Shown here in pieces: positions 2 through 13,474 of a DNA stretch of 32,000 nucleotides. The stretch spans positions 60,001 through 92,000 of the forward strand of contig CP008937.1 in the NCBI GenBank assembly GCA_000743035.1, in the 5' to 3' direction. Below the pieces are notes generated by a model. The model saw only the letters and a list, made by a program, of their open reading frames with translations, did no database searches and had not been told where the DNA came from. Position numbers and translations under genes: made by a program. The stretch's first letter is position 1, and each line of letters opens with the position of its first letter. This DNA is from Candidatus Paracaedimonas acanthamoebae (lineage in GTDB: Bacteria; Pseudomonadota; Alphaproteobacteria; Caedimonadales; Caedimonadaceae).

Positions 2-403
2 ACAGCTTTATATGTTAACCTACCTGCCATTAAAAGAGCAGAAATATTATCTGACGGCAATAAGAAGATCACGGCACAAATAATAGTTTATATTAGAATT
101 ATAACGACTTCCTACGAAGCTAAAAATATAAGAGGAGCAGATATTGCTGCAGATCTTCTTGGTTATATTTCTACTAAAAGATGGGCAGTGCCCTATGCTT
201 TTTCTGCTCAGAATGTTCAAGCTGATGATTGCTATGGTTTTAACAAAGATAATATCCAAATTATCTTAGGAGACAACAGTCATTGGACTCCAAGTATTTT
301 AGCACAGGTACAACGTCTGTATGATGTAAGTCATGGGGAAGGTGATGTATCTGTATGGATGGTAAGTTGGGAACAACCATTACAATTTAATCAAGTTGAG
401 TAA
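2..403 (+). CDS. 3' part of an unidentified protein directly upstream of the baseplate genes (5' end outside the window). It occupies the position of the tail-completion genes in P2-like clusters, but I do not recognise the family.
   Basis: Frame 2 is open from nt 2 to TAA 401-403. The ORF track shows only the part after an internal GTG at 188. Same strand as the tail genes, and the stop lies 7 nt before the gpV-like ATG. Confidence 0.45.
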   Translation, partial: TALYVNLPAIKRAEILSDGNKKITAQIIVYIRIITTSYEAKNIRGADIAADLLGYISTKRWAVPYAFSAQNVQADDCYGFNKDNIQIILGDNSHWTPSILAQVQRLYDVSHGEGDVSVWMVSWEQPLQFNQVE

Positions 404-410
404 TTAACTA

Positions 411-1019
411 ATGGATAACAATTTTTTACTTATTGAACATGATCGTATGCTTAGTAATATGGTGCGCATTGGATTAGTCGAAGAGGTAAATTATAAAAAA
501 GCTCGAGCTAAGATAAAGCTAGAGGATGATTTTGCAACATATTGGTTGCCATGGTTGACACGCAAAGCCGGTGCTTCTTATGAGTATTGGGCTTTAGAAA
601 AGGAGGAACAAGTTGTTGTTGTTTTTCCTTCAGGAGACTTAAATCAAGGAATCATCATAGGGTCTATTTGTAAAGGGGATCCTGATAATAAATTAATTCC
701 CAATTCAACTAGCTCTAAAGAAGATCAAGCTTCAAAACTACAGACTTTGCATAAGGTAGTTTATAAAGATGAGTCATCTTTTTCTTACGACTGTAATAAA
801 GACGCGCATAATTTTTTTCTTGAAATAAGAGATAATAGTAATAAAGCGGCCATAGAAATCAATGCAGATCCGCAAAAAGGAATTTCTATCAATATAAAGG
901 GTAGCGGGGAACTTAATTTTATAAGTGAGGGCGAGATAAATATTAAAAGCTCTCAAGCTATAAAAATTAAAGGTAAATCCCTGGATATTGAAGTAGATGA
1001 AGTAGTTCAAGTGAGATGA
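411..1019 (+). CDS. gpV: Baseplate central spike / baseplate assembly protein V (P2 gpV-like, Phage_base_V family)
   Basis: The N-terminal half (NMVRIGLVEEVNYKKARAKIKL..YWLPWLTRKAG..YWALEKEEQVVVVFPSGDLNQGIIIGS) follows the gpV OB-fold pattern as I remember it from P2. The C-terminus is beta-helix-like (ISINIKGSGELNFISEGEINIKSS). It is the first gene of a V-W-J-I-H series. Confidence 0.85.
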   Translation: MDNNFLLIEHDRMLSNMVRIGLVEEVNYKKARAKIKLEDDFATYWLPWLTRKAGASYEYWALEKEEQVVVVFPSGDLNQGIIIGSICKGDPDNKLIPNSTSSKEDQASKLQTLHKVVYKDESSFSYDCNKDAHNFFLEIRDNSNKAAIEINADPQKGISINIKGSGELNFISEGEINIKSSQAIKIKGKSLDIEVDEVVQVR

Positions 1020-1032
1020 GGAAAATAATATA

Positions 1033-1377
1033 ATGGCAGGGATGGATGCAGAAACAGGGAAGCTTATTGAAGGACTTGATCATTTAAAGCAATCAATTTT
1101 GGATATTCTTAAAACACCTTTAGGTTCACGTGTTATGCGTCGTGATTATGGGTCTAGAATTTTCTCAATGTTAGATCAGCCAATTAATCAGGAGCTTATT
1201 TTACAATTGCAAGCATCTGTTGCAGAAGCCTTGACTACTTATGAACCACGTTTACGTCTTTCCAGGGTTAAAGTAGACAGCCGAGGACCTGGGGAAATTT
1301 TAATAAAAATAGAAGGCTATCATGCCGTTGATGGCCAGCCCATAAATTTAAGTGAACGAATTGAAATGATGAATTAA
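1033..1377 (+). CDS. gpW: Baseplate wedge protein W (P2 gpW / T4 gp25-like)
   Basis: 114 aa. The motif ILKTPLGSRVMRRDYGS..LDQP matches the GPW_gp25 signature (GxRvmrxdyGs). Size and position match P2 gpW. Confidence 0.9.
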   Translation: MAGMDAETGKLIEGLDHLKQSILDILKTPLGSRVMRRDYGSRIFSMLDQPINQELILQLQASVAEALTTYEPRLRLSRVKVDSRGPGEILIKIEGYHAVDGQPINLSERIEMMN

Positions 1378-1414
1378 TAACTGCTGTAATCGGGCGTACA
1401 AGGGGGAGGAAGTT

Positions 1415-2278
1415 TTGGGGTTTAAAACTGATTTTGAGACACTAGACTTTGAGACTATTGTCCAAGAAATGAAGCAATCATTAATTAAAAAATGGAAAAG
1501 CATCAATGTTCATGTTGATGAACTTCTCGAAAGTGATCCTGCGGTTAAAATTATTGAGATTGCAGCATATCAAGAATTGTATGCACGTCAAAGTATTAAA
1601 GAATCAATAAAAAAAGTTTTTGTGCAAAGTGCTCAAGATAAAGATTTAGAAAATCTTGCAACTCTATTTAATCTCAAACGACTTAAGAATGAAGATGACA
1701 ATAAGTTTCGAGAAAGGATTATGTCTTCGCGCTATTTAGAGCAATCTGCAGGAACTAAAGCAGCTTATGAGCAATGTGTTCTTAGTCATTCCTATGTTCA
1801 AGATGCAAAAGCACTGTGTAATGAAGATTCAAAAATAGAAATAATTGTTTTGTTGCAAGTACATGAAGAACAATTATTCTCCACACTTGAAAAGGAGATA
1901 GGAAGGCATATTGAAGAAAGGCGTGTCATTACTGATTATGTAGTTCTAAAACCTGCGTATATCCATTCTTATCAACTTTCTGCAGAATTATACCTTCGAC
2001 CTGGCCCAGGCATTTTTGAAGTAGGACAACAAGCGAAGAGGCGTCTAATAGACTATATTAAAATAAATTATAAGCTTGGACATACAATAAGTTTAGCAGG
2101 AATTTATAATTCTCTTACCTTGCCAGGAGTATACAAAATTGAACTCAAATCACCTCTGGAAGATATTTATGCAAAAGACCATGAAGCGTCTAGATGCGAG
2201 CAAATTGATTTAAAGCTTATAACCCCTACAGGATCTATTTCATTACCTCTTTTAGGTAAGGAGGAGATCTATGCCTAA
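1415..2278 (+). CDS. gpJ: Baseplate wedge protein J (P2 gpJ / T4 gp6-like, Baseplate_J family)
   Basis: 287 aa, TTG start 5 nt after GGGGGAGGA. The segments LDFETIV.., LESDPAVKIIEIAAYQELYARQ, LENLATLFNLKRLKNEDDNKFRERI and SAELYLRPGPG..LGHTISLAGIYNSL..GVYKIEL parallel P2 gpJ along its whole length. Confidence 0.85.
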   Translation: MGFKTDFETLDFETIVQEMKQSLIKKWKSINVHVDELLESDPAVKIIEIAAYQELYARQSIKESIKKVFVQSAQDKDLENLATLFNLKRLKNEDDNKFRERIMSSRYLEQSAGTKAAYEQCVLSHSYVQDAKALCNEDSKIEIIVLLQVHEEQLFSTLEKEIGRHIEERRVITDYVVLKPAYIHSYQLSAELYLRPGPGIFEVGQQAKRRLIDYIKINYKLGHTISLAGIYNSLTLPGVYKIELKSPLEDIYAKDHEASRCEQIDLKLITPTGSISLPLLGKEEIYA

Positions 2279-3248
2279 TAATAAGATGCCTACTAGCTTT
2301 GGGTATAAGTCAATTATGTCTCCTTTGCTGATTGACTTAGCAAGCCTAGAGGTTCCTTTTTTCGTACCTTTAAGGCCTCGGAAAGATCTACTAAAAGAGT
2401 TGTCTGAGAAGATTTCCAATGAACCGATGGTTTTAAAACTGTTAGAAGTTATTGTTGAGCGTGAAGAAAGTCTTCGACAGTGGATTAATGAGATGTCTCG
2501 AGATGTTCTGTTAGCTACAGCTAAAGGAGATTATCTAGATCAAATTGTTTCTCTATATGGAGTTAAGCGTTTAACAAAAGAAGATGATGAAATTTTGCGA
2601 CAACGTACGCTTTTATCTCTTTATGGTTATGGTGCTTCAGGATCAAAAGAAAATTACTTATTCCATATTTATTCCTTAAACCAAGATAACGCTATTCAAG
2701 ATGTGAACATTCATTCTCTAGATCCTGGTAAGGTTTTAGTCACCTTATTACCGACTATAATTTCTCCAGACAAACCTGTATTTACACCTGAAAAATTAAC
2801 TGAAAAAGTGTCTTCTTACCTTAAGGTTCATGCACCCCTTACTGATAAAATTGAAGTAAAATTTGCTGAAATTTTTTCTTATGTTATTCAAGTTAATTTA
2901 GTGCTTTATAATGATGAAAATTTAGAACAAATAAGACAAGAAGTTGAAACACGATTACAAAGTTTTGCTAAGATTAATTACATATTAGGGCAATCTATTG
3001 AAACCAGTGCTTTACAGGCTGCAATCTACCATCCAGACATCAAGGCTAATAAGGTCAGAATAGAAGGATGCTTTCTCAAAGAGGGAACTAAAAAAACATA
3101 TGATATGAAAATTCAAAACCTAATTGGACTCAGTTTTAATCAAGCTCCTTATTGCAATTATCAAAAGCAACAAGAAGAAACTCCACTAGATCCTTCTCAT
3201 CCTGAACTTTATGGAATTCAAGTTTCAATTACTAAACATTTAGATTAA
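2271..3248 (+). CDS. Second Baseplate_J-like protein (paralogue of the preceding gene)
   Basis: 325 aa. ATG follows AAGGAGG and overlaps the upstream stop by 8 nt. It shares J-family blocks with the neighbour: YLDQIVSLYGVKRLTKEDDEILRQRT vs LENLATLFNLKRLKNEDDNKFRERI, and INYILGQSIETSALQAAI vs INYKLGHTISLAGIYNSL. Confidence 0.7.
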   Translation: MPNNKMPTSFGYKSIMSPLLIDLASLEVPFFVPLRPRKDLLKELSEKISNEPMVLKLLEVIVEREESLRQWINEMSRDVLLATAKGDYLDQIVSLYGVKRLTKEDDEILRQRTLLSLYGYGASGSKENYLFHIYSLNQDNAIQDVNIHSLDPGKVLVTLLPTIISPDKPVFTPEKLTEKVSSYLKVHAPLTDKIEVKFAEIFSYVIQVNLVLYNDENLEQIRQEVETRLQSFAKINYILGQSIETSALQAAIYHPDIKANKVRIEGCFLKEGTKKTYDMKIQNLIGLSFNQAPYCNYQKQQEETPLDPSHPELYGIQVSITKHLD

Positions 3249-3251
3249 AAA

Positions 3252-3887
3252 ATGACGACATTAACTCCTTTACTTCCTCCTCATGCGACACAACTTGAAA
3301 AAACCTTATGCCAAGCCACAGAACGTTTGAATGAAATTCTGTTAATACACACAACTGAAGGTAATGATTTAAAACCTTCTGTAAGAATTAATATTAATCA
3401 GTTATGGGATGTGGATCATTGTCCAGAAAAATTTCTTCCTTGGCTTGCTTGGGCTTTGGCCGTCAACGTTTGGGATGAAGGATGGTCAGAGGAAAAAAAA
3501 CGAGCGGTCATTAAAAACAGTGCTTTAGTACATAGCAAAAAAGGAACAATTTCGGCGATTAAAGAAGCCGTAAAACCCTTTGGAGTTTCAGCCCATGTGA
3601 CAGAATGGTGGGAAAAGAAAGTTCCTATAGAAAGGCGTAAACCTTACCATTTTTACATAGATATATTCGTTGATACAAATCTTTCTCAAAAAGATTTCCC
3701 TGAGATAAATGAGACCTTTATCGCAAACCTGCGACAAGTCATTGATACTGTCAAACCTTTAAGGAGTACTTACAAAATAGCAATAGGAATTACTCTTCGT
3801 CTTGAGAGTAAACTAAATATGGTTTGTCGTATGAGTGCTTTACCCCTTTTACGTTCAACATTTTTATTAGAAAAAAGAGAGCAATAA
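3252..3887 (+). CDS. gpI: Baseplate/tail protein I (P2 gpI-like, Tail_P2_I family)
   Basis: LWDVDHCPEKFLPWLAWALAVNVWDEGWSEEKKRAVIKNSALVHSKKGTISAIKEAVKPFG..VTEWWE matches the conserved core of P2 gpI. Position is after J. Confidence 0.9.
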   Translation: MTTLTPLLPPHATQLEKTLCQATERLNEILLIHTTEGNDLKPSVRININQLWDVDHCPEKFLPWLAWALAVNVWDEGWSEEKKRAVIKNSALVHSKKGTISAIKEAVKPFGVSAHVTEWWEKKVPIERRKPYHFYIDIFVDTNLSQKDFPEINETFIANLRQVIDTVKPLRSTYKIAIGITLRLESKLNMVCRMSALPLLRSTFLLEKREQ

Positions 3888-3889
3888 AT

Positions 3890-5077
3890 ATGAGTAATAT
3901 ATTTAAACCTGTCATTACAAATAAAGGCCTAGAAGTTATAAGTAAATTACAAGCAGTAAATAAACCTTGCCAGATCACGCATGTTGCTCTTGGGTCAGGT
4001 GCATCCTATATAGCAACAGGGCAAGAAAGCAGCCTAAAAGAAGAAAAACAACGCGTTCCTATATCCGATTGTCAATGGATTGAAAATGGTCAAAATGGGC
4101 AGATTCATCTAAAAGCTGTGGCAGATGATCAGCATGCTGAGCCTTATGATATTTTTGAAGTCGGATTTATTATAAAAGGGGTGAATGGAGAGCAAGTTTT
4201 ATTTGCCCTTTACACGACAGGAAATGCAACTAAGCTTGTCTATAAAAGCAAAGAAGCCGATGTTTTATTAGCGTTTGATCTCGTTTTGGGGTTATCTGAC
4301 CAAGAAATAAGATTATTGATTCCATCCACCAAATCTGGAGAGGGATTTTCCTATCCTGTTGCAACAGTCGAAAAACCAGGAATTGTTTCTCTTGCAACTG
4401 CTGAGCAAGTCAAAGATGGTAAAGACAGTAGCTCGGTTATTACCTCTGCAACACTAGCCCCCCTCTTGGAAGAAATTAAAAATCTCCAAGCAAAATTTAA
4501 TACAAGATTAGATTCATTTGGGCAAATTCCAGTTGGAACTATTATCGATTGGTGGAGACCTGAAGAGAATGAACGGTATCTTTTTCCTGTAGGGTTTGTG
4601 ATCTGCGATGGACGTATCATTGATGATTCTCAAAGCGTCTACCATGGTAAGGCAGTCCCAAATCTAATTGATAAATTTATTAGAGCTGTTCCTATAAATA
4701 GATTAGGTGAAGTGGGCGGGAAAAGCGAGTGGAATGCGCAACAAGACCCAACTCTTTTAACTGATGCGATAGGAAGCCATAGTCATAATTATAAAGATCT
4801 AAAATCTTTAACGGGTTGGGTAGTACCAATTGCTAACTATCCTAAAAAAGAAGATAAACCTTGGGCTTGTGGCGTATATAACTCGGATGGGAAGCTTGAA
4901 GATGCCATGTTTAGAACTAGAGGGAAGAATGATTCTACTGACCATAATGAAGGGCAGCATCGACATTCCCTTCCAGACCTTAATTCTGATGGAAACCATA
5001 CACATAAAATTGTTGAAGGAAAGATTGCAACGATTCCCCCTTATTTTGGTCTCTTAAAACTGATTAGAATTAAGTAA
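3890..5077 (+). CDS. gpH: Tail fibre (P2 gpH-like N-terminus; collar-like domain and HxH-rich C-terminus)
   Basis: I prefer ATG 3890 (MSNIFKPVITNKGLEVISKL..ITHVALGSG), 3 nt after the gpI stop. This resembles the conserved N-terminus of P2-type fibres. The track start at 3824 would overlap gpI by 64 nt. The C-terminal part has a collar-like segment (PVGFVICDGRII..GKAVPNLIDKFIR) and three HxH motifs. Confidence 0.8.
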   Translation: MSNIFKPVITNKGLEVISKLQAVNKPCQITHVALGSGASYIATGQESSLKEEKQRVPISDCQWIENGQNGQIHLKAVADDQHAEPYDIFEVGFIIKGVNGEQVLFALYTTGNATKLVYKSKEADVLLAFDLVLGLSDQEIRLLIPSTKSGEGFSYPVATVEKPGIVSLATAEQVKDGKDSSSVITSATLAPLLEEIKNLQAKFNTRLDSFGQIPVGTIIDWWRPEENERYLFPVGFVICDGRIIDDSQSVYHGKAVPNLIDKFIRAVPINRLGEVGGKSEWNAQQDPTLLTDAIGSHSHNYKDLKSLTGWVVPIANYPKKEDKPWACGVYNSDGKLEDAMFRTRGKNDSTDHNEGQHRHSLPDLNSDGNHTHKIVEGKIATIPPYFGLLKLIRIK

Positions 5078-5187
5078 AAAATTTAAAAATTCTATAAATA
5101 AAGAGGCAAGATATTAAAGTAAAATTAATCTTTTTATATTTAAATTAACCTATCAATATTTAACATCCTTAGGGAAGAAAGGTGATT

Positions 5188-6330
5188 ATGTCAGAAGATT
5201 TTTTACATGGAATTGAAATTCAAGAACAAGATATAGGGCCTCGTTCAATAGGACTAATAGATTCATCTGTTATTGGACTTGTGGGAACAGCAACAGGGAT
5301 TGAAAAAAATAGACCCATATTAATTAAAGGATCAAAAGATCCTCTTTTAGAAAAATTAGGAAAAGCAGGAACAATTCCAACCGCACTCGCTGGTATTTTT
5401 GATCAAACAGAAGCCCAAGTTGTTGTTGTTAATATAGGTGAAGGAACTGCAGATGATGAAGCTGGAGAAGACACGGCAGGAAATGGTGGTAAGCCAAAAC
5501 TAAAAGGGACTTCTAATTTAAAAACTGCGGCTGAGAGCCTTTTAAATGCTGAAAGTGTTGTTCACAAAACCCCCCGTATTCTTATTGCTCCAGGTTTTTC
5601 CAATAAAAAAGAAGCCATAGAAAGCTTATTATCTGTTGCTCAACGTCTTAGAAGTGTCGTGATTGCTGAGTGCCCAGAAGATGAAAATATTGATAGTTTA
5701 GGAATTGCGCATAATGATCGTCTTTATTTTATTCATCCAAGTTTCATTGTGGGAGAAAATAAACCTGAACCAGCTTCAGCACGTATAGCAGGGGTGATTG
5801 TAAGGTCAGATAATGAGCGTGGTTTTTGGTTTAGCCCTTCAAATCAACCGATCATGGGTATTAGAGGAACTAAAACACCGATTCCTTTTGCTCTTGGAGA
5901 TAAAAATGCCAAAGCAAACGAATTGAATGCGAAAGGTATTGCAACGGTTATTCATCAAAATGGGTATCGCCTATGGGGAAATCGTAGCTATTCTGACAAC
6001 TCAAAATGGCAATTTCTGAGTGTAAGACGAACAGCAGATGCAATTAACGATTCACTTCTTCAAGCACACTTTTGGGCGATTGATCGGAATATCACAAAAA
6101 CTTACGTCACAGATGTTATTGAAGGCGTAAATGTTTTCTTAAGAAGCTTAAAAGCAAAAGGAGCGATCCTCGGCGGTAAGTGCTGGGCCAATCCCGAAGA
6201 TAATACTCCTGATAAAATCCAATCAGGTCAAATTGCTTTTAATTTTGACTTTACACCCCCTTATCCGGCTGAGCGCATTACATTTAAAAGCGCAATTGTT
6301 GATAACTACCTTAAGGAACTCTTCTCATGA
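5188..6330 (+). CDS. FI: Contractile tail sheath protein (P2 gpFI-like)
   Basis: MSEDFLHGIEIQE..IGLVGTA, PRILIAPGF, GFWFSPSNQ, YRLWGNRSYSD..WQFLSVRRTAD and FNFDFTPPYPAERITF track P2 FI along its length. ATG 5188 follows GGGAAGAAAGG; GTG 5182 is an alternative start. Confidence 0.93.
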   Translation: MSEDFLHGIEIQEQDIGPRSIGLIDSSVIGLVGTATGIEKNRPILIKGSKDPLLEKLGKAGTIPTALAGIFDQTEAQVVVVNIGEGTADDEAGEDTAGNGGKPKLKGTSNLKTAAESLLNAESVVHKTPRILIAPGFSNKKEAIESLLSVAQRLRSVVIAECPEDENIDSLGIAHNDRLYFIHPSFIVGENKPEPASARIAGVIVRSDNERGFWFSPSNQPIMGIRGTKTPIPFALGDKNAKANELNAKGIATVIHQNGYRLWGNRSYSDNSKWQFLSVRRTADAINDSLLQAHFWAIDRNITKTYVTDVIEGVNVFLRSLKAKGAILGGKCWANPEDNTPDKIQSGQIAFNFDFTPPYPAERITFKSAIVDNYLKELFS

Positions 6331-6827
6331 TACCCAAGACACTCAAAAACTTTAATCTTTACATTGACGGCCGCGGTTATGCAGGTCGTGTTGAAGAAAT
6401 CAATTTACCAAAGTTATCTATTAAAACTGAAGAGTATCGTGCTGGCGGGATGGACATGCCTGTGGAAATTGATATGGGAATGCAAAAACTCGAAAGCAGT
6501 ATCACGTTGAGTGAATATGACGATGAAGTTCTAAAGCTTTTTGGAACGCATGATAATAAGCCTAATGTTAATTTTAGAGGCGCTATGGAGGATGGCTCTG
6601 GCAAAGTAACACCAGTTCTCATCGCTCTTAATGGCAAATGGCGCGACCTTGATTTTGGGAATTGGAGAAGCGGTGATAAAGCCACTTTAAAGATTGAAGT
6701 CATAGCTCATTATTATCGTCTTGAGATTGATGGCAAGGAATTAATTGAAATTGATATTGAGAACATGGTCCGAAAAATTAATGGGGAAGACCAATTAAAA
6801 CCTATTCGGGATGCCCTTGGGATCTAA
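6327..6827 (+). CDS. FII: Tail tube protein (P2 gpFII-like)
   Basis: LKNFNLYIDGRGYAGRVEEINLPKLSIKTEEYRAGGM and YYRLEIDGKELIEIDIENMVRKINGEDQL closely follow P2 FII. An ATGA start/stop overlap with the sheath gene suggests translational coupling. Confidence 0.93.
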   Translation: MIPKTLKNFNLYIDGRGYAGRVEEINLPKLSIKTEEYRAGGMDMPVEIDMGMQKLESSITLSEYDDEVLKLFGTHDNKPNVNFRGAMEDGSGKVTPVLIALNGKWRDLDFGNWRSGDKATLKIEVIAHYYRLEIDGKELIEIDIENMVRKINGEDQLKPIRDALGI

Positions 6828-6899
6828 TAAATTAAGTAAATAATGAACCTAAAAGGAGTAGGGCTTAACCCTATACCTTTCTTTTGAAAAGGAAAGATA

Positions 6900-7142
6900 A
6901 TGAGTACACAAATTGATCTTAAATACCCTATCATGGCAGAAGGCCGGGAAATAACAAGCTTGACGTTACGCCGTCCTACGGTTCGGGATCGACTAATAGC
7001 AGAAAGAACGAATGGGACAAACTTTGAAAAAGAAATTCGACTTGTTGCAGCTCTATGTGATCTTGCTCCAAATATTATTGAATCCTTAGATATGGCGGAT
7101 TATAGCGAGCTTCAAGATGCCTTATCTGATTTTTTATCCTAA
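6900..7142 (+). CDS. gpE: Tail assembly chaperone E (P2 gpE-like)
   Basis: 80 aa. L.YP....G.EI.SLTLRRPTVRD resembles the gpE family (tail assembly chaperone E/41/14). It sits between the tube gene and the tape-measure slot and ends in a slippery T-run. Confidence 0.85.
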   Translation: MSTQIDLKYPIMAEGREITSLTLRRPTVRDRLIAERTNGTNFEKEIRLVAALCDLAPNIIESLDMADYSELQDALSDFLS

Positions 7143-7282
7143 GTCCTGATGATCTTTATAAAGCGGTTATAGAGCTTAATTCTTATACTCAATGGGGATT
7201 AAATGAATTGTTGGGACTTGAGGAACAAGAAATTCTTAAGTGGAATCAGGTTGCTAAAAAGGCCTATGGGAAGAGCTATTAA
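6900..7282 (+). CDS. Tail assembly chaperone E+E' (predicted programmed -1 frameshift product)
   Basis: After a -1 slip on T_TTT_TTA (7130-7136), the -1 frame stays open for 48 codons (ILSPDDLYKAVIELNSYTQWGLNELLGLEEQEILKWNQVAKKAYGKSY) to TAA 7280-7282. The extension length and the W-containing helical motif resemble the P2 E' extension. The region is otherwise an unexplained 160-nt gap. Confidence 0.7.
7130..7136 (+). other. Slippery heptamer T_TTT_TTA for -1 ribosomal frameshifting (gpE to gpE+E')
   Basis: X_XXY_YYZ heptamer in the gpE zero frame (gaT TTT TTA tcc taa), 4 nt before the gpE stop. P2-like phages use a T-run at the equivalent place. Confidence 0.7.
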
Positions 7283-7303
7283 AAATAGTTGAGGGAAGAA
7301 TAA

Positions 7304-9739
7304 GTGCCTAGAAGTAAAGGGAAAAATCAGAAAAAATCTTCAACTAATAAGACACGTAATGGTGGTATTAAAAAAAACAGGATACAAGAAAATAAAATAT
7401 TAAATCCATTAACAAAAAAACAAAAAAACAACTATGTTTTTTATTTAGAGAGATTTAAAGAAGCGCTTAAAAATGATGCTTTTAGAGAAAGTTACGAAGA
7501 GAATTTAAAGGGTAAATTTTATAAAGAAATGGGATGTCCTGAATTTCAGGAGTTAAAAAAATGTTCAGAAAATCATTCAAAATGGGATTTGGGGTGGCCA
7601 CTTGAGCCTCTTGCTAATCTATTTAATAATATAGCTAAAGATATAAATAATGCTGCGACCAACGTGCAGAAGAAAAAAGAGAAAGAAGAATTAAATAAAA
7701 AAATTCAAGAAGCCGAAGCGGAAGAGCGTAAAAAAGTTCGTGAAGAGGCCCAAGCAAGGGGAACATTTGGCTCGCTTCAAAATAAATATGAAAAGAGAGC
7801 TGATATTACAGAAAGTCAATATTTAGATCTAACAGCTGCTAAATTAAACTTAAACGAAACACAGATGACCTTATCTTTTAAACGAAATGATAGGGTTGAG
7901 AAAACTTGGCATTATAAACATTTTCATAAAAATTTACAGAATGTAAAGCGCCTAAGGACAGAAGTAGGAAAACCAGCATTAGGTAAACAAGAAAGTTTTG
8001 AATTTGTAAGAGGAGAAGGGGCTAAAACTACTTCTTTAGGGCATGTAAATATTTTGAGCATTGAAGATGTTTACAAGACAAGAGAGGCTTTGAAGGCGAT
8101 ATATCTGCAAAAAAACAAAAATTATATTACAACTTCTATTACTCTCCCTCAGGATATACTAAAGAAGGGTAAATTTCGGTATGAATTTGCGGAAGGAACA
8201 GATATAGGCCTTTATCCTACTCATATTGTAAGTGAAGAAAAAGATCTTCAGCTTAAAATTCAGCGTACTAGTCAAGCGCCCGCGTATAAAGAGCTAGCTA
8301 AGATGCTTGATTCAGGGTTAGGTGAGTTGATAAAGAAAGTACTGAGTGAAGATGGAGAAAAAGTTTGGGGAGACACTAAGACAGATCTCACTGAATCTGT
8401 ATCAGCATTAAAGAATGATGACCAAAAAGAAACAGAACTAAAAAAACTTTTAACCAGAGGCATATTAAGAGAAGCAAAACGGCTTACGCGCTTCAAAAAA
8501 CCTAAAAATGAATGGTTAATTTCCAACAATGATACTCTTGATGCTCTTGTCGAATTAGCGATGCTTGCAGAACTAGCGGAATACCATCGTTCAGGGGGGC
8601 ATATTTTAGCCAGGCTGGCCTTGAAAATAGGAGGAGATTCTTTTCAAGAAGTTTACACAGGAAGCCATCCCTTATTTATTGGAGCTAAAGCTGAAAAGGC
8701 TGGAGCTGATGAAGGAGGCGCACAGGCCATGAAAAGAATCTTTGAAAATACTGCCAATGAGCCCGATCAAAAAAATTTATTTAAACTTGTAAGCAGCCTT
8801 CTAATAAATCGATATAACAAAATGACAACTACGGAAGGTCGTGGCATTTATGCTAGAAATTTAGAGGAGTTTGAAGACTGGATGCAACAAGCTCTAAGAA
8901 AAAGCTTAGGGGACGTTCCTGTAAAAAATTCACTCTTAGAAACTCCCTTAATTGAAAATTTGTGGTTAAGTTCTCGGGCAGCATTTCTTTTCCTGAATGA
9001 GAACTATAATGAAACTTTTTTTTGGAAAGATATTTTTTTTAAGAAATGGTTGCCAGAAAATAGTAGAATTCTAGATGAACCACAACAAATTAAACATAAA
9101 AAAGTTATTGATTTTGAAGAAAAAAGTATGGCCTTAGAAGGGAGCCAAGCAAGACTTTTAGAGGCAATTAAAATTGTAGGAAAGCTTAGAGCTGTTAGTA
9201 AAATTTTTAGCAGTAACAATTATTTAACGGTTGATAGCGAACTTCCTTCGGACTATTTTCAGGATCATTTTTTTCCGTGGCTTGATGGCACCATAAACTT
9301 CAACTCTAGATTTGTAACCCAGGAATATCTAAATTTAAGAAGGAAAGGTATGGACAAAGATGCAGCGGTTAAAACTATAGTTTATTATGAGAAAGGAAGA
9401 AAACTTGATTTTCAAGAGGAAGCTTTGGAGAAATATGTAGATACTATCGAAAATGAAAGTGAATCAGGAAAAACAACAAATACATCGAAAAGACCTCTAG
9501 ACCCTGACAGCGAACATGAACCACCAAATAAAAGATTCAAACAAGATAAAATGTTTGAGGATGAACGTGCTACAATACAAGCTAACACCGAATTTGAAAA
9601 GGAAGGAAAAATTTCTGGGGTGGAGGCTGATGATTTAAGTAGTTATGTAGAGTTAAGAGCAAATGGAGTAGATAAAGAAGTGGCTATTCTGTTCATACAG
9701 CAAAATAAATCTTCTTCTTCTTTTAGTGATCAATTTTAG
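7304..9739 (+). CDS. Protein in the tape-measure (gpT) slot. A tape-measure role is inferred from position and length only; the sequence is atypical (Lys/Glu-rich, NLS-like motifs).
   Basis: 811-codon ORF with GTG start 6 nt after GAGGGAAG, lying between E/E' and gpU. Its length is close to P2 gpT as I recall it. I recognise no tape-measure sequence signature. Confidence 0.6.
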   Translation: MPRSKGKNQKKSSTNKTRNGGIKKNRIQENKILNPLTKKQKNNYVFYLERFKEALKNDAFRESYEENLKGKFYKEMGCPEFQELKKCSENHSKWDLGWPLEPLANLFNNIAKDINNAATNVQKKKEKEELNKKIQEAEAEERKKVREEAQARGTFGSLQNKYEKRADITESQYLDLTAAKLNLNETQMTLSFKRNDRVEKTWHYKHFHKNLQNVKRLRTEVGKPALGKQESFEFVRGEGAKTTSLGHVNILSIEDVYKTREALKAIYLQKNKNYITTSITLPQDILKKGKFRYEFAEGTDIGLYPTHIVSEEKDLQLKIQRTSQAPAYKELAKMLDSGLGELIKKVLSEDGEKVWGDTKTDLTESVSALKNDDQKETELKKLLTRGILREAKRLTRFKKPKNEWLISNNDTLDALVELAMLAELAEYHRSGGHILARLALKIGGDSFQEVYTGSHPLFIGAKAEKAGADEGGAQAMKRIFENTANEPDQKNLFKLVSSLLINRYNKMTTTEGRGIYARNLEEFEDWMQQALRKSLGDVPVKNSLLETPLIENLWLSSRAAFLFLNENYNETFFWKDIFFKKWLPENSRILDEPQQIKHKKVIDFEEKSMALEGSQARLLEAIKIVGKLRAVSKIFSSNNYLTVDSELPSDYFQDHFFPWLDGTINFNSRFVTQEYLNLRRKGMDKDAAVKTIVYYEKGRKLDFQEEALEKYVDTIENESESGKTTNTSKRPLDPDSEHEPPNKRFKQDKMFEDERATIQANTEFEKEGKISGVEADDLSSYVELRANGVDKEVAILFIQQNKSSSSFSDQF

Positions 9740-9758
9740 AAGAGAAAGGGAATAACAC

Positions 9759-10160
9759 ATGAGTGTAATGTTAATGTTAGGACCTTATATGTTTTCGGTG
9801 TCAACGGCGGCTTATCAAGATTTAAAGCGGTCAACGGAATACAATTGGACAGAGAAAAAAACCATTAAGCCCGCAAAGGTTAATGCCTCAAAATCATTAC
9901 TTAGGTATAGCGGACTTGGAAGAGAAACAGTTTCCTTAAACGGGATCATTTATCCTGCTTATAAAGGGGGGATTTACCAACTTCCATTAATGCGGGAAAC
10001 CGCAGGTTTAGGACTTCCTCTTCCTTTAATTGGGTTGAGTGGATTTATTTTGGGAAGATGGATTATTGAAAGTATAGATGAAAATCAATCCACATTTCAT
10101 CAATATGGTATTCCTCGAAAAATAGATTTCCATTTAAGTCTTCGACGATATTATGAATAA
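9759..10160 (+). CDS. gpU: Tail protein U (P2 gpU-like)
   Basis: MLMLGPYMFSV..AYQDLKRS, ETVSLNGIIYPAY.GG and GIPRKIDFHLSLRRY match the gpU family pattern (..GTPRKIDF.LSL.. in P2). Confidence 0.9.
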   Translation: MSVMLMLGPYMFSVSTAAYQDLKRSTEYNWTEKKTIKPAKVNASKSLLRYSGLGRETVSLNGIIYPAYKGGIYQLPLMRETAGLGLPLPLIGLSGFILGRWIIESIDENQSTFHQYGIPRKIDFHLSLRRYYE

Positions 10161-10171
10161 GGCAAAATATC

Positions 10172-10501
10172 ATGGCAAGAATTTATATAACCAAGCAAGG
10201 GGATATGCTGGATTGGATCTGCTGGCGGTACTATAGTTACCTCCATCGTATACAAAACCTGGCTGTGGGAGATTATGCGCATATTCCTCATCATGATCTT
10301 ATGGATCAAGAGCCTCTTTTCCCCGTTTCTGGAGGAGCAAAACAGTTCCAAGAAGGTTTTTTAAGAGGCGCAGTGGAGGCTGTTTTGGAAGCTAACCCTG
10401 GACTTGTAGACCAAGGCGTTATTCTCCCTGCAGGTATTAAGGTTACCTTACCTAATTTTGATCCCACTATTATTAAAAATGTTCCGCGTTTGTGGGATTG
10501 A
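10172..10501 (+). CDS. gpX: Tail protein X (P2 gpX-like, LysM-like Phage_tail_X) with an internal insertion
   Basis: QGDMLDWICWRYY ... VEAVLEANPGL....VILPAGIKVTLP are the two halves of the gpX signature. They are separated by about 40 extra residues. Confidence 0.85.
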   Translation: MARIYITKQGDMLDWICWRYYSYLHRIQNLAVGDYAHIPHHDLMDQEPLFPVSGGAKQFQEGFLRGAVEAVLEANPGLVDQGVILPAGIKVTLPNFDPTIIKNVPRLWD

Positions 10502-10503
10502 TT

Positions 10504-11508
10504 ATGGCACTAGCAATTAATTATAAAATCCAGATTGAAAATAAAGAACTTACGTCTTATTTTCATGAACGTTTTTTGTCTCTTACAATTAAAGATTGGG
10601 GGGGAAAACAAAGTGATGAAGCCATTCTTATCTTTGATGATCGACCTTATCCCACTCCTGATACATCGCTCAGTGTTCCTGGATGCGGTGCTTCCTTAGA
10701 TGTTTTTTTAGGACACAGAAATGAGCTCATCGGCATGGGTCAATATATTATCGATGATCGTGTTTTAATTGGACAACCAGACGGCCAATTTTTGAAAATT
10801 TATGCAAAAGGCCTTAATGTTGTCTCTTCTTTCTTAAGCCTTAAAACTCGGTCTTGGGTGAGCCAAGAAGGGGGGCCACCCATGACCTTAGGAACAATCA
10901 TTTCACAAATTGCACAAGAACATTCAATGATTCCCAAGGTGAGCGAAAAACTTAGCCAAATTTCTATTATTCAAGAAAATCAGACACGAGAATCAGATAG
11001 TAACTTCCTTATGCGGTTGGCTAAAAAATATGGAGCATTATTTAAACCTCGTGGAAAGAATCTTGTTTTTGCATCTTTTACAGAAAGCATGAGTATTGAA
11101 GGAAAAAAATTTCCCACATCACTGTTAGGTCCTGCCAATGTTTATAATTGGCGTGTTACTTTTGCTGAACGGAACAAATTTACTCAAGTTCAAGCCTTTT
11201 GGTATGATTATCAAGAAAATAAATTAAAAATGATTAAGGTGGGAACGGAAGGAAAAGTTTTCCAACTTCGTCATCAATATTCTTGCGAAAATGAGACTTT
11301 ATATGCTGCAGAATCCTACTTAAAAAAATTAAGTATGCAGACTGAACATCTTGAATGTCGTATCCCAGGTAATCCTGAACTCCTTGCAGAACACCAAGTA
11401 TCTTTGGCCGGGTTTAAAGAAATAGTGAATGGAAGGTGGACTTTAAGCTCAGTGACTCACAAGGTTAATAGTAAAGATTATGTAACAACTTTTCAAGCTT
11501 ATAGATAA
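10504..11508 (+). CDS. gpD: Late control protein D / baseplate hub (P2 gpD-like, Phage_GPD)
   Basis: LSLTIKDWGGKQSDEAILIFDD, TLGTIISQIAQEH, QTRESDSNFLMRLAKKYGALF and WTLSSVTHKVN parallel P2 gpD. ATG 10504 lies 3 nt after the gpX stop. GTG 10492 (the track start) is an alternative. Confidence 0.9.
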   Translation: MALAINYKIQIENKELTSYFHERFLSLTIKDWGGKQSDEAILIFDDRPYPTPDTSLSVPGCGASLDVFLGHRNELIGMGQYIIDDRVLIGQPDGQFLKIYAKGLNVVSSFLSLKTRSWVSQEGGPPMTLGTIISQIAQEHSMIPKVSEKLSQISIIQENQTRESDSNFLMRLAKKYGALFKPRGKNLVFASFTESMSIEGKKFPTSLLGPANVYNWRVTFAERNKFTQVQAFWYDYQENKLKMIKVGTEGKVFQLRHQYSCENETLYAAESYLKKLSMQTEHLECRIPGNPELLAEHQVSLAGFKEIVNGRWTLSSVTHKVNSKDYVTTFQAYR

Positions 11509-11526
11509 TAGTTAAAGGAGAAAGAG

Positions 11527-11910
11527 ATGAATCAAGGAGAGTCCGTTGCAACTCAACAAGATGTTAAGATGACACTGGCAACAGCTGCCCAAGTGCCATC
11601 AGGAGCTATGCCTAGTTCAGGAGGTCAATGGCAAGCCGGTACAGTGAGCTGTAAATTCCATCAAAAAATTAAAGTAGATGGACAGCCAGTTATTTATGAA
11701 GCTCAATGTATATTCACATATAGCGGAGGAAAGACAGCCGATGGAATCGCAGATTTTCCAACTCCATTTCTGGATACCGTCGTATTAAAGCCAAAGATAG
11801 GAAAATTAAAAGAAAAAAATATTGATGTCTTATTAAATGGCGATGCTTACACAAGTCCATATGGAAATACGTTAGAAATAAAGTCTCACAGGAAGCTTAA
11901 ATTAAACTAG
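11527..11910 (+). CDS. Small hypothetical protein, last gene of the tail operon (function unknown; weak PAAR-like flavour only)
   Basis: 127-aa ORF with ATG 6 nt after AAGGAGAAAGAG, 18 nt after the gpD stop, same strand. Predicted beta-rich. The segments KIKVDGQPVIYEAQC and IDVLLNGDAY are faintly reminiscent of PAAR repeats. Confidence 0.5.
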   Translation: MNQGESVATQQDVKMTLATAAQVPSGAMPSSGGQWQAGTVSCKFHQKIKVDGQPVIYEAQCIFTYSGGKTADGIADFPTPFLDTVVLKPKIGKLKEKNIDVLLNGDAYTSPYGNTLEIKSHRKLKLN

Positions 11911-11971
11911 ATAAAATTCATTTTCGCCTCGCAAAAATAAGCCTGTTCCTTAGAAATTTGATATATATATG

Positions 11972-13129
11972 TTATTCATCTAGAAATCTAGCAAGTTCTT
12001 CTAACTGTGTATCGTACTGTTCAATAACTGCCAATGCGTATGCTTCGAGAGCAGCTATATTTTCAGGGCTTCCATTGTCCATGTCTGCATGATGTTGCTG
12101 AAGAGTTGGCTGAAATCGATAATATTTTCTTCTAAATTTTGTTTTATGAACATCGTAAAAAAATAAATCTTTCATTTGCTGATGAACCGTGTCACTCCCT
12201 GCATTGAAAACAACATCTACAATATCAGCTGCCCAATCAAGCTTCCCTCCTTTGCCAAATTGTGAGCTATCAAAAGAATCAATAGTTGCTTCATCATAAA
12301 GAGATCCTGTACCTAAAGACAAAATTAAGAAATCATTATCATGGCCATAAATTTCAAATGCATGAAGACATGCTGAAAGGGTAGGATTATTAGCAGCAAC
12401 GCCTCCATCAATTAGGGTACGAATTTCTGTTTCATTAAGATTCTTGATTATTGCTGGTGTAAAATATGTAGGAGCTGCAGAAGTTGCGCGAGCAACGTCT
12501 TTCATATAATAATTTTTATATGGATCATTTTGAGAATCATACTTTTTAAAAAAGACTGTTTGATGAGTATTAACATCATAAGCAGGAATGATGACATTTG
12601 TGAGCGAGTCTTTAATTTGTGTATCACCTAGATAAAGATAAAGAAATTTTTCTAAATTTTCTTGTAAGTATTTCTCATCTAGCCATCCATTAAGGCTAAA
12701 TATGAAATGAAAGATTGATTGATCAAAAATATTTTCGCCTAAAGTTTTATAAAGCTGTGCAATAAAATTTGCACGATATCGGGGATAGCCAGAAGCGTTA
12801 GGCTTACTGAGCATTAAAGCAATAATTCCGCCTGTTGAAGTTCCTGCCATGATATCAAAACATTCACTTAAGTGTTTTTTTTTCTTAAGGCGTGCTTCTA
12901 AATTTTCCAGAATTTTGGCTGGAATTATTCCCCGAACACCACCACCATCAATAGCCAGTATCTTAATTACCTTTTTATTAGGTTTTGAAGGAGAGCTATT
13001 AAATAAAGCTGCTGAAGAATTGAAAGAAATACAAACAGACAATAGAATATTTGAGATGTAACTATTTATTTTTGAAAAATTAAACATTTTTATTATTATA
13101 GTCCTAATAGAAATTTTTATATGGAACAT
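11972..13129 (-). CDS. Patatin-like phospholipase with a signal-peptide-like N-terminus
   Basis: Oxyanion-hole motif DGGGVRG, nucleophile elbow GTSTGG (GxSxG) and catalytic Asp motif DGGVAANNP appear in the correct order. Internal ATG 13087 (MFNFSKINSYISNILLSVCISFNSSAA) is a likely true start. Confidence 0.9.
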   Translation of the reverse strand: MFHIKISIRTIIIKMFNFSKINSYISNILLSVCISFNSSAALFNSSPSKPNKKVIKILAIDGGGVRGIIPAKILENLEARLKKKKHLSECFDIMAGTSTGGIIALMLSKPNASGYPRYRANFIAQLYKTLGENIFDQSIFHFIFSLNGWLDEKYLQENLEKFLYLYLGDTQIKDSLTNVIIPAYDVNTHQTVFFKKYDSQNDPYKNYYMKDVARATSAAPTYFTPAIIKNLNETEIRTLIDGGVAANNPTLSACLHAFEIYGHDNDFLILSLGTGSLYDEATIDSFDSSQFGKGGKLDWAADIVDVVFNAGSDTVHQQMKDLFFYDVHKTKFRRKYYRFQPTLQQHHADMDNGSPENIAALEAYALAVIEQYDTQLEELARFLDE

Positions 13130-13189
13130 GTTTTATCATAATAAAATTTATCTGCCACCAACAATTTAAGTAATTCAGCTTAAGAAAAG

Positions 13190-13474
13190 TCATTTTACGG
13201 AGATTTTCATGGAAAAGAGGTGGACCAAAGACAGAATATTTTTTGCAAATAATTGCTTTAATATTTTGTTTAGAAATTTAGTTATTTCTGGGTTTACCAG
13301 GCTGGCTCCTTGGGGACCATTCACCCAATAGCTTGCTAGTAATCTCTCAATTTGTCGTGTACTAATATGAAGAATTTCTGCAGCTTGAACTTGACTTAGA
13401 CGTTTTTCACTTACTTTCTTAATAATTTCAAGGCGATGAAGTTCTTTCTCACTCATAATGACCAGTTTCTCCAT
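13190..13474 (-). pseudogene. Degenerate N-terminal fragment of a transposase (HTH domain, ISNCY/IS1202-like)
   Basis: MSEKELHRLEIIKKVSEKRLSQVQAAEILHISTRQIERLL is the typical N-terminal HTH of such transposases. After about 55 aa the homology continues only in another frame (KAIICKKYSVFGPPLFHENL), so it is frameshifted. No catalytic domain follows. Confidence 0.6.

Follow-up and report, generated by a model that had tools for sequence, protein, structure and literature searches.

An orphan protein occupies the tape-measure slot of a phage WO-like contractile-tail cluster on a plasmid of Candidatus Paracaedimonas acanthamoebae

The Holosporales bacterium Candidatus Paracaedimonas acanthamoebae lives as a symbiont in the cytoplasm of Acanthamoeba; it has a genome of 1.7 Mb, a GC content of 38% and five plasmids (PMC11909080). 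We analysed a stretch of 32,000 nucleotides (contig CP008937.1, positions 60,001 to 92,000 of the forward strand; hereafter the window) of its 148,131-bp plasmid. On the + strand, nt 411-11508 of the window hold a complete P2-type contractile-tail gene set, each gene with a significant Pfam or PHROG assignment, and the slot of the tape measure gene (T) is taken by an open reading frame (ORF) for an 811-aa orphan protein, which is the subject of this study (Table 1). The structural genes of the window were all assigned to phage families of the P2 type. Head genes are not seen in the window, whose tail set starts at gpV.

Given that the original prediction located the ORF in the tape-measure slot, the surroundings of the slot were inspected. 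The ORF is the sole one between the genes of the E/E' chaperones and gpU, as had been predicted, and the same product of 811 codons is annotated by NCBI. It is co-oriented with both neighbors, with 22 nt between the E' stop and its start and 19 nt between its end and the gpU start. The 3' end of the E gene reads ...GAT TTT TTA TCC TAA, and the -1 frame stays open until the TAA at 7280-7282, which is the same geometry as that of the E/E' frameshift of P2. The E-to-U slot measures 2617 nt, compared with a median of 2520 nt (range 994-5529) in 66 related clusters. The size of the product had been likened to that of P2 gpT, and this holds (811 versus 815 aa); the tape measure of the phage WO strain WOVitA1 has 732 aa. 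The 12 other tail ORFs are all intact, with normal lengths, and the flanking tail proteins share 27-57% identity with their homologues in phage WO or Haematospirillum. WO identities were measured against WOVitA1; the sheath is also 51% identical to its counterpart on a plasmid of Haematospirillum jordaniae.

The GC content, the GC content at third codon positions (GC3) and the codon usage of the ORF are typical of the window, and therefore give no sign of a recent insertion. Neither flanking repeats nor ends of insertion sequences (IS) were found at the slot borders, and no internal promoter or terminator stands out. A recent horizontal insertion of the ORF was thus rejected on the basis of the typical codon usage and GC3 and the absence of flanking repeats. 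Paralogy with the neighboring island proteins was also considered, and none was found.

Table 1. Features of the tail module, the 811-aa protein and the compared slot proteins. Positions are those of the window, except in the last four rows, which list slot proteins of other clusters. AF2, AlphaFold2; H, predicted helix (residues); pLDDT, predicted local distance difference test; MAG, metagenome-assembled genome; NLS, nuclear localization signal.
Feature	Position (nt)	Strand	Remarks
gpV	411-1019	+	
gpW	1033-1377	+	
Two J-like baseplate genes	1415-2278 and 2271-3248	+	Baseplate_J / phrog_6
gpI	3252-3887	+	
Tail fibre, phage-like	3824-5077	+	
Tail sheath	5182-6330	+	48% identity to phage WO
Tail tube	6327-6827	+	57% identity to phage WO
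gpE-type tail assembly chaperone, 80 aa	6900-7142	+	Pfam Phage_TAC_7, E=1.9e-19; 47% identity to phage WO gpG
-1 slippery heptamer T_TTT_TTA	7130-7136	+	Read from sequence; yields E' (E + ~49 residues, end 7282)
Shine-Dalgarno GAGG	7291-7294	+	9 nt 5' of the GTG start
811-aa orphan protein in the tape-measure (T) slot	7304-9739	+	IM40_09585 / AIL13675.1; GTG start
Basic N-terminus, 45 residues	7304-7438	+	Net charge +13, partly from A7-A8 runs
K/E-rich stretch, residues 122-152, KKKEKEELNKKIQEAEAEERKKVREEAQAR	7667-7759	+	Within predicted 50-residue helix H100-149, pLDDT 54-61
Residues 188-308, sole segment with a detectable homologue	7865-8227	+	Predicted non-helical; match to P0002
Motif copy 1, YLNLRRKGMDKDAAVKTIVYY, predicted helix-turn-helix hairpin	9326-9388	+	AF2 H668-680, H685-697, pLDDT 62-70
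NLS-consensus tract KRPLDPDSEHEPPNKRFKQD	9488-9547	+	Holds the bipartite match KR-x11-KRFK and PPNKRFKQD
Motif copy 2, YVELRANGVDKEVAILFIQQ	9644-9706	+	AF2 helices H778-786, H791-800
gpU homologue	9759-10160	+	Pfam Phage_P2_GpU, E=1.6e-27; 33% identity to phage WO
gpX	10172-10501	+	27% identity to phage WO
gpD hub	10492-11508	+	31% identity to phage WO
Patatin	11972-13129	-	
Slot protein L023	11458-13422		654 aa; 4.3-Mb gammaproteobacterial MAG OZ255836
Slot protein L031	9877-10905		342 aa; Gynuella MAG
Slot protein L080	10034-11248		404 aa; Ca. Endobugula sertula
Slot protein L070	9227-12991		1254 aa; Pseudoalteromonas ardens

The occupant of the slot was next compared with those of related clusters. 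We collected 80 loci with a sheath 45-58% identical (nearly all 46-51%) to that of the window, and extracted the slot ORF from the 68 loci that had enough downstream sequence. In 59 of these 68 loci the slot holds a canonical tape measure as judged by a hidden Markov model (HMM) at E<=1e-3, and in 60 if the C-terminal signature ...AL[YF]D is accepted. The tape measures of WO, Haematospirillum, P2 and a Rickettsiales MAG, taken as positive controls, matched PF10145 (PhageMin_Tail) at E values of 1e-28 to 1e-45. Plain BLASTP was sufficient for those of WO, Haematospirillum and P2 to recover each other (E 1e-7 to 1e-26), and the 811-aa protein found none of these three by the same method.

It had been noted that the usual character of a tape measure is missing from the 811-aa protein, and the comparison supports this. 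Alanine and glycine make up 11.6% of its residues, versus 15.5-32% in the 59 canonical proteins, its best 19-residue hydropathy is 0.95 versus 1.5-2.6, and PF10145 is absent. Profile searches placed it in no standard tape-measure family. The protein thus resembles P2 gpT and the PhageMin_Tail family in its size and in its place after E/E' and before U-X-D, but differs from them in lacking PF10145, the Gly/Ala-rich hydrophobic segment and the conserved C-terminal module, which consists of a short beta-strand, an amphipathic basic helix and ...[GA]L[YFH]D near the end. Two candidate remnants of the family were examined and rejected. A hidden PhageMin_Tail core at about residues 390-600, suggested by weak BLASTP matches to WO and Haematospirillum, was negative with HMMs of 12 and 59 sequences and with hhalign. 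A C-terminal hub-docking module, formed by the second copy of a duplicated motif described below and a terminal FSDQF that by eye resembled the conserved end ...ALADAIIRRM...MFD of P2-type tape measures, was negative with two C-terminal profiles that recognised real members. By every feature examined, the 811-aa protein is a true outlier, outside the P2 gpT family. What can be upheld of the predicted "atypical protein in the tape-measure slot" is therefore the slot, by synteny, spacing, size and the E/E' frameshift, and an occupant unrelated to the family that fills the slot in about 90% of the clusters.

Relatives of the 811-aa protein were sought widely. The whole protein had no match in Pfam at E<=0.01 and none in PHROGs, NCBIfam or PDB sequences; four fragments of it were also compared with Pfam, and PF10145 did not appear among their matches even at E<=10. 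None of these searches, in Pfam (with the fragments), PHROGs, NCBIfam or PDB, revealed an enzymatic or toxin domain. A tblastn search of 50,697 phage records and scans of IMG/VR viral and JGI metagenome contigs revealed no relative, and a megablast search of PLSDB plasmids, a word-indexed protein search and exact-sequence contig look-ups returned nothing beyond the protein itself and one fragment, P0002. An exhaustive HMMER search of 1.84 billion representative proteins likewise recovered only the query and P0002. The latter is a 140-aa fragment from soil (SRR3546814_556347) that aligns to residues 188-308 with E=3.9e-12 and 35-39% identity, and its first methionine aligns with Met188 of the 811-aa protein. 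A profile of the two sequences found no further relatives. No orthologue covering the C-terminus was found among the 1.84 billion representative proteins, as P0002 spans residues 188-308 only. A POTRA-like domain at residues 251-291 (Pfam POTRA_2, E=0.03) was below the cut-off and was not reproduced with P0002; we regard it as only a lead.

The structure of the protein was predicted with AF2. The full-length single-sequence model had a pLDDT of 39, which is low confidence, and contained 52% helix overall: 68% in residues 1-150, 7% in residues 151-325 and 63% in residues 326-811. The earlier description of the body as K/E-rich and probably helical therefore agrees with this low-confidence model outside residues 151-325 (63-68% helix) and fails for residues 151-325, which are predicted to be non-helical. 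Lysine accounts for 11.8% of the whole protein, glutamate for 10.4%, and lysine plus arginine for 17%. When AF2 was run on a two-sequence alignment of the segment of residues 188-308, the pLDDT was 34.

The window protein is not the only unusual occupant of the slot. To delimit the slot, the homologues of E and U were located in the 80 loci. In four further clusters (L023, L031, L080 and L070) the E-to-U slot proteins miss both the tape-measure profile and PF10145, and the slot is therefore evolutionarily plastic. All four are unrelated in sequence to the 811-aa protein. Two of them, L023 and L031, are rich in Gln and have PPS[FY]YG as their C-terminal end. L023 shares with the window protein a strongly basic opening tract, KRKKTRKTRKNARGN, with a net charge of +11 in 45 residues. 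As a side observation, L031 and L080 have only 342-404 aa, which implies short tails or another ruler.

Considering the position of the ORF, its operon structure and its intact neighbors, we propose that it probably encodes the tape measure of a P2/phage-WO-like contractile tail, in a lineage-specific, non-canonical form without detectable sequence similarity to PhageMin_Tail. The four other clusters with non-canonical slot proteins offer a precedent. The intact tail ORFs and the preserved frameshift speak for ongoing selection on tail assembly, a process that requires a tape measure. We infer that the 811-aa protein serves as the ruler, is present in the particles and is ejected from them. 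In analogy to P2 and lambda, the long, largely helical protein would be kept in place by the E/E' chaperones during polymerisation of the tube around it, which would start at the U/X/D hub. The length of the protein (compared above with that of P2 gpT) would set the length of the tail, and the protein would be expelled when the tail contracts. Its Lys/Glu/Asn-rich and Ala/Gly-poor composition may follow the AT-rich host genome; its alanine-plus-glycine content lies within the range of the neighboring proteins (7.7-17.5%). Such an AT-driven composition, combined with a canonical core that has been lost or replaced, would yield basic tracts that match an NLS consensus by chance.

Several observations weigh against this proposal. 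No sequence or structural sign of tape-measure homology was seen in the 811-aa protein, which scores 1.2 bits on the profile of 59 tape measures, with an hhalign probability of 0.5%. A C-terminal profile built from the last 55 residues of the 59 proteins does recognise the C-termini of P2 gpT, Mica, Roseomonas, Tistrella, Haematospirillum and P0005, but gives the query -2.7 bits, and not at its C-terminus. In the predicted model, residues 151-325 seem to form a folded, non-helical domain that is shared with P0002 and is unlike a ruler. Moreover, Wolbachia and Rickettsiales MAGs with 35-40% GC keep canonical tape measures with 15-24% alanine plus glycine and a hydrophobic segment, and composition alone therefore does not explain the loss of the canonical features.

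These observations raise the question of whether the slot still holds a tape measure at all. The T gene could have been displaced by, or have decayed into, an unrelated, lineage-specific gene, for instance one for a symbiont protein with a separate role, leaving a tail cluster that is a relic unable to assemble or that makes tails not regulated in length. The wholly undetectable homology, in a family whose members from WO, P2 and Haematospirillum match by BLASTP, fits this explanation, and so do the conserved non-helical domain at residues 188-308 with its sole homologue starting at an aligned methionine, the IS21 and IS110 debris nearby, and the location on a plasmid of a genome-reduced symbiont. 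However, the other 12 tail ORFs and the programmed frameshift site have been preserved, the slot length is near the family median, and the tight operon spacing, the native codon usage and the slot borders free of repeats and IS speak against a displacement. We consider this explanation unlikely.

We then considered the basic N-terminus. The original prediction counted 14 lysine or arginine residues among the first 45, which is correct; the same segment has one acidic residue. Its net charge is the highest among 69 slot proteins, the canonical ones having a median of +3 and a maximum of +9. A 45-residue segment with 14 such residues arises somewhere in 1270 of 2000 shuffles (64%). Given the basic start of the gammaproteobacterial L023, a very basic N-terminus is therefore not confined to symbionts of eukaryotes. 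One A8 and two A7 runs lie at nt 7369-7430, within the first 130 nt of the ORF; such tracts are slippage-prone, and therefore the expression or the frame of the ORF could vary.

A duplicated motif had been described near the C-terminus, and two copies of Y[LV]xLRxxG[MV]DK[DE]xA[VI] are indeed present, YLNLRRKGMDKDAAV starting at nt 9326 and YVELRANGVDKEVAI starting at nt 9644. The predicted hairpins of the motif are the best-predicted part of the AF2 model (pLDDT 55-70). The status of the pair as a duplication was not borne out: it is the best internal match of the protein, yet its Smith-Waterman score of 43-46 was reached in 25 of 200 composition-preserving shuffles (12.5%), and no DNA-level repeat lies behind it. 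The suggested likeness to SAP or HeH domains also failed, since the C-terminal 163 aa had no SAP, HeH, LEM or Rho_N profile match in Pfam even at E<=10. The sole matches of this segment at that threshold, Hydrolase_3 (E=0.009) and DUF7218 (E=0.09), fell short of the cut-off.

The basic, probably disordered N-terminus and the C-terminal hairpins could together indicate a tape measure that binds nucleic acid and holds or pilots the genome end in the head-proximal lumen of the tube, in which case the basic tracts would serve DNA handling in bacterial infection and not import into a eukaryotic nucleus. Consistent with this are the N-terminal net charge of +13, the most extreme among slot proteins of which the canonical ones are only mildly basic, the helix-Gly-hydrophobic-Asp-helix pattern of the predicted hairpins, which is typical of helix-turn-helix (HTH)-type motifs, and the closeness of the cluster to the tail of a temperate phage, WO. 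Nevertheless, no DNA-binding family was matched, the window shows no head genes, and the N-terminal lysines come largely from the A7-A8 runs, which AT-biased mutation would create anyway. We regard this variant of the tape-measure proposal as rather improbable.

The original prediction went further and proposed that the protein may be delivered into a eukaryotic target and directed to the nucleus. The underlying motif is real: PPNKRFKQD is present at nt 9521-9547 and fits the pattern P-x-x-K-R-x-K-x-D of the c-Myc NLS PAAKRVKLD. A bipartite match, KR-x11-KRFK at residues 729-746, had gone unremarked. The tract that contains both sits in a predicted acidic, Ser/Thr-rich linker with a pLDDT below 50 for residues 720-735 and 739-756, a position compatible with an exposed linear motif in the model. 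The exact P..KR.K.D pattern occurred in 8 of 5000 composition-preserving shuffles, although the pattern was picked post hoc. The monopartite consensus K[KR]x[KR] was found 8 times in the protein, including KRFK at residue 743, versus 2.6 +/- 1.6 times in shuffles. For the bipartite consensus KR-x10-12-(3 of 5 basic), 4 matches were counted versus 1.4 +/- 1.3 in shuffles, 7% of which reach 4, and at least one bipartite match also occurs in 14 of the 59 canonical tape measures, which come from bacteria that are unrelated and for the most part free-living. The likeness to the c-Myc monopartite and nucleoplasmin-type bipartite NLS is a consensus match alone, with comparable matches in ordinary tape measures. 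Judged from the sequence, the NLS-consensus matches appear to be near chance for a lysine-rich composition and may lack specificity. As predicted, basic tracts also occur in neighboring island proteins, the 1018-aa orphan having 4 monopartite and 5 bipartite-like tracts.

We nevertheless weighed a tape measure that doubles as an effector, being ejected into the amoeba cytosol when the tail contracts against an amoeba membrane and reaching the nucleus through an NLS at residues 729-748, the basic N-terminus or both, with the hairpins binding chromatin. As an obligate symbiont, the bacterium resides in the cytoplasm of Acanthamoeba, a patatin gene and eukaryote-like genes (F-box+Sel1, NB-ARC+TPR, kinase-like) lie downstream of the tail module, the NLS-like tract falls in a predicted disordered linker, and the protein as a whole has more monopartite matches than its shuffles, all of which would suit such a role. 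There is also a precedent in concept, as contractile injection systems (CIS) of actinobacteria have tape-measure-related cargo effectors with C-terminal functional domains, namely Tme of Streptomyces davawensis and Sle1 of S. lividans (PMC11126660, PMC13277306). What these share with the proposed effector is the idea of a tape-measure-like protein in a contractile tail with a C-terminal functional domain that is active after ejection. However, both Tme and Sle1 retain remote homology to tape measures and have identifiable functional domains (an endonuclease in Tme), and they act on bacteria as parts of cytoplasmic CIS of actinobacteria. The 811-aa protein, by contrast, shows no homology to tape measures, has no recognisable effector domain and is encoded in a P2/WO-type tail.

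Other evidence also speaks against an effector. The bipartite count and the score of the duplicated motif are reached by shuffled sequences at the rates given above, the bipartite consensus is matched by canonical tape measures as well, no SAP, HeH, LEM, Rho_N or effector domain was detected, and there is no orthologue in which conservation of the NLS-like tract could be seen. The tail belongs to the P2/WO phage type and has a phage-like fibre, and no gene for the hallmarks of extracellular CIS (an Afp15-type AAA+ ATPase loader or an Afp16-type cap) was found within window positions 1-32000. Furthermore, it is hard to see how a particle assembled inside a symbiont in the cytoplasm could be fired into the host from the exterior. 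No positive support was thus obtained for delivery into a eukaryote or for targeting to the nucleus, and we consider the effector very improbable. The most specific version, in which a WO-like tail, carried on a plasmid by an endosymbiont of amoebae, exchanged its tape measure for an unrelated ruler that is expelled into the amoeba and imported into its nucleus via KR-x11-KRFK, is more improbable still.

Returning to the setting of the proposed non-canonical tape measure, the element as a whole was compared with phage WO over window positions 5182-13474 and 22076-31999. The order 3' of gpD is orf127, patatin, a small HTH protein, a YhcG nuclease, orphans with IS debris, and then eukaryote-like genes; the distal part of the island encodes an F-box+Sel1 protein, the 1018-aa orphan, a kinase-like protein and a GerE+NB-ARC+TPR protein that runs off the window. 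WOVitA1 follows the same order, with sheath, tube, chaperones, T, U, X and D followed by patatin, HTH genes and a eukaryotic association module. Among 50,697 phage records, homologues of the patatin with a named host were found only in phage WO, with 38% identity, in addition to two uncultured metagenomic phage records. The element differs from WO in that the T-slot protein of WO is a canonical TP901/PhageMin_Tail tape measure, in its location on a plasmid of a Holosporales amoeba symbiont, and in its baseplate genes, which are contiguous with the sheath as in P2. According to a survey of the Symbioviridae, WO-like prophages outside Wolbachia are without patatin and the eukaryotic association module, with the prophage of Ca. 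Mesenet as the exception; the survey makes no mention of Ca. Paracaedimonas acanthamoebae (PMC9203015).

Some further observations concern the neighboring genes. The two J-like genes are tandem and overlapping, encode 287 and 325 aa and share 26% identity, whereas P2 and the relatives examined have one copy. The gpX homologue has 109 aa versus 69-71 aa in WO and Haematospirillum, and its Tail_X domain covers only residues 63-98, which indicates an N-terminal extension of about 40 residues. For an ORF at nt 2-400 (+), which extends past the left border of the window and has 133 aa or more, the only matches were a faint one to phrog_1072 and a weak one by tblastn, located 5' of the sheath in one of the related loci (L008). 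In the island, a 637-aa orphan (17521-19434, - strand) has a weak metallo-beta-lactamase (MBL)-fold/ComEC-like region at residues 311-456, with an NCBIfam anti-phage 6A-MBL match (E=2.9e-9) far below the cut-off, and carries 3 K[KR]x[KR] and 3 bipartite-like tracts. The IS debris at 19730-21915 comprises a truncated IS21 istA-like ORF (19730-20257), an intact IstB ATPase gene (20254-21036) and an IS110-family transposase fragment (21340-21915). The 1018-aa orphan (24202-27258, - strand) and a 517-aa orphan (15873-17426, + strand) match no family in Pfam, PHROGs or NCBIfam.

The nuclear effector, if true, would be the first tape measure to act as a eukaryote-directed nuclear effector and would be important. 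If the 811-aa protein measures the tail, as we propose, then the role of ruler in P2/WO-type tails would be open to a sequence-unrelated protein while the chaperones and the hub are conserved. Such a ruler would lack the hydrophobic core and the hub-docking C-terminus that are thought typical of the family, and may be useful for defining the minimal needs of tape measures and for tailocin engineering. In addition, the WO-like tail found here together with patatin and eukaryote-like genes extends features so far regarded as nearly Wolbachia-specific, and the surrounding element merits a closer look by researchers of endosymbiont phages.

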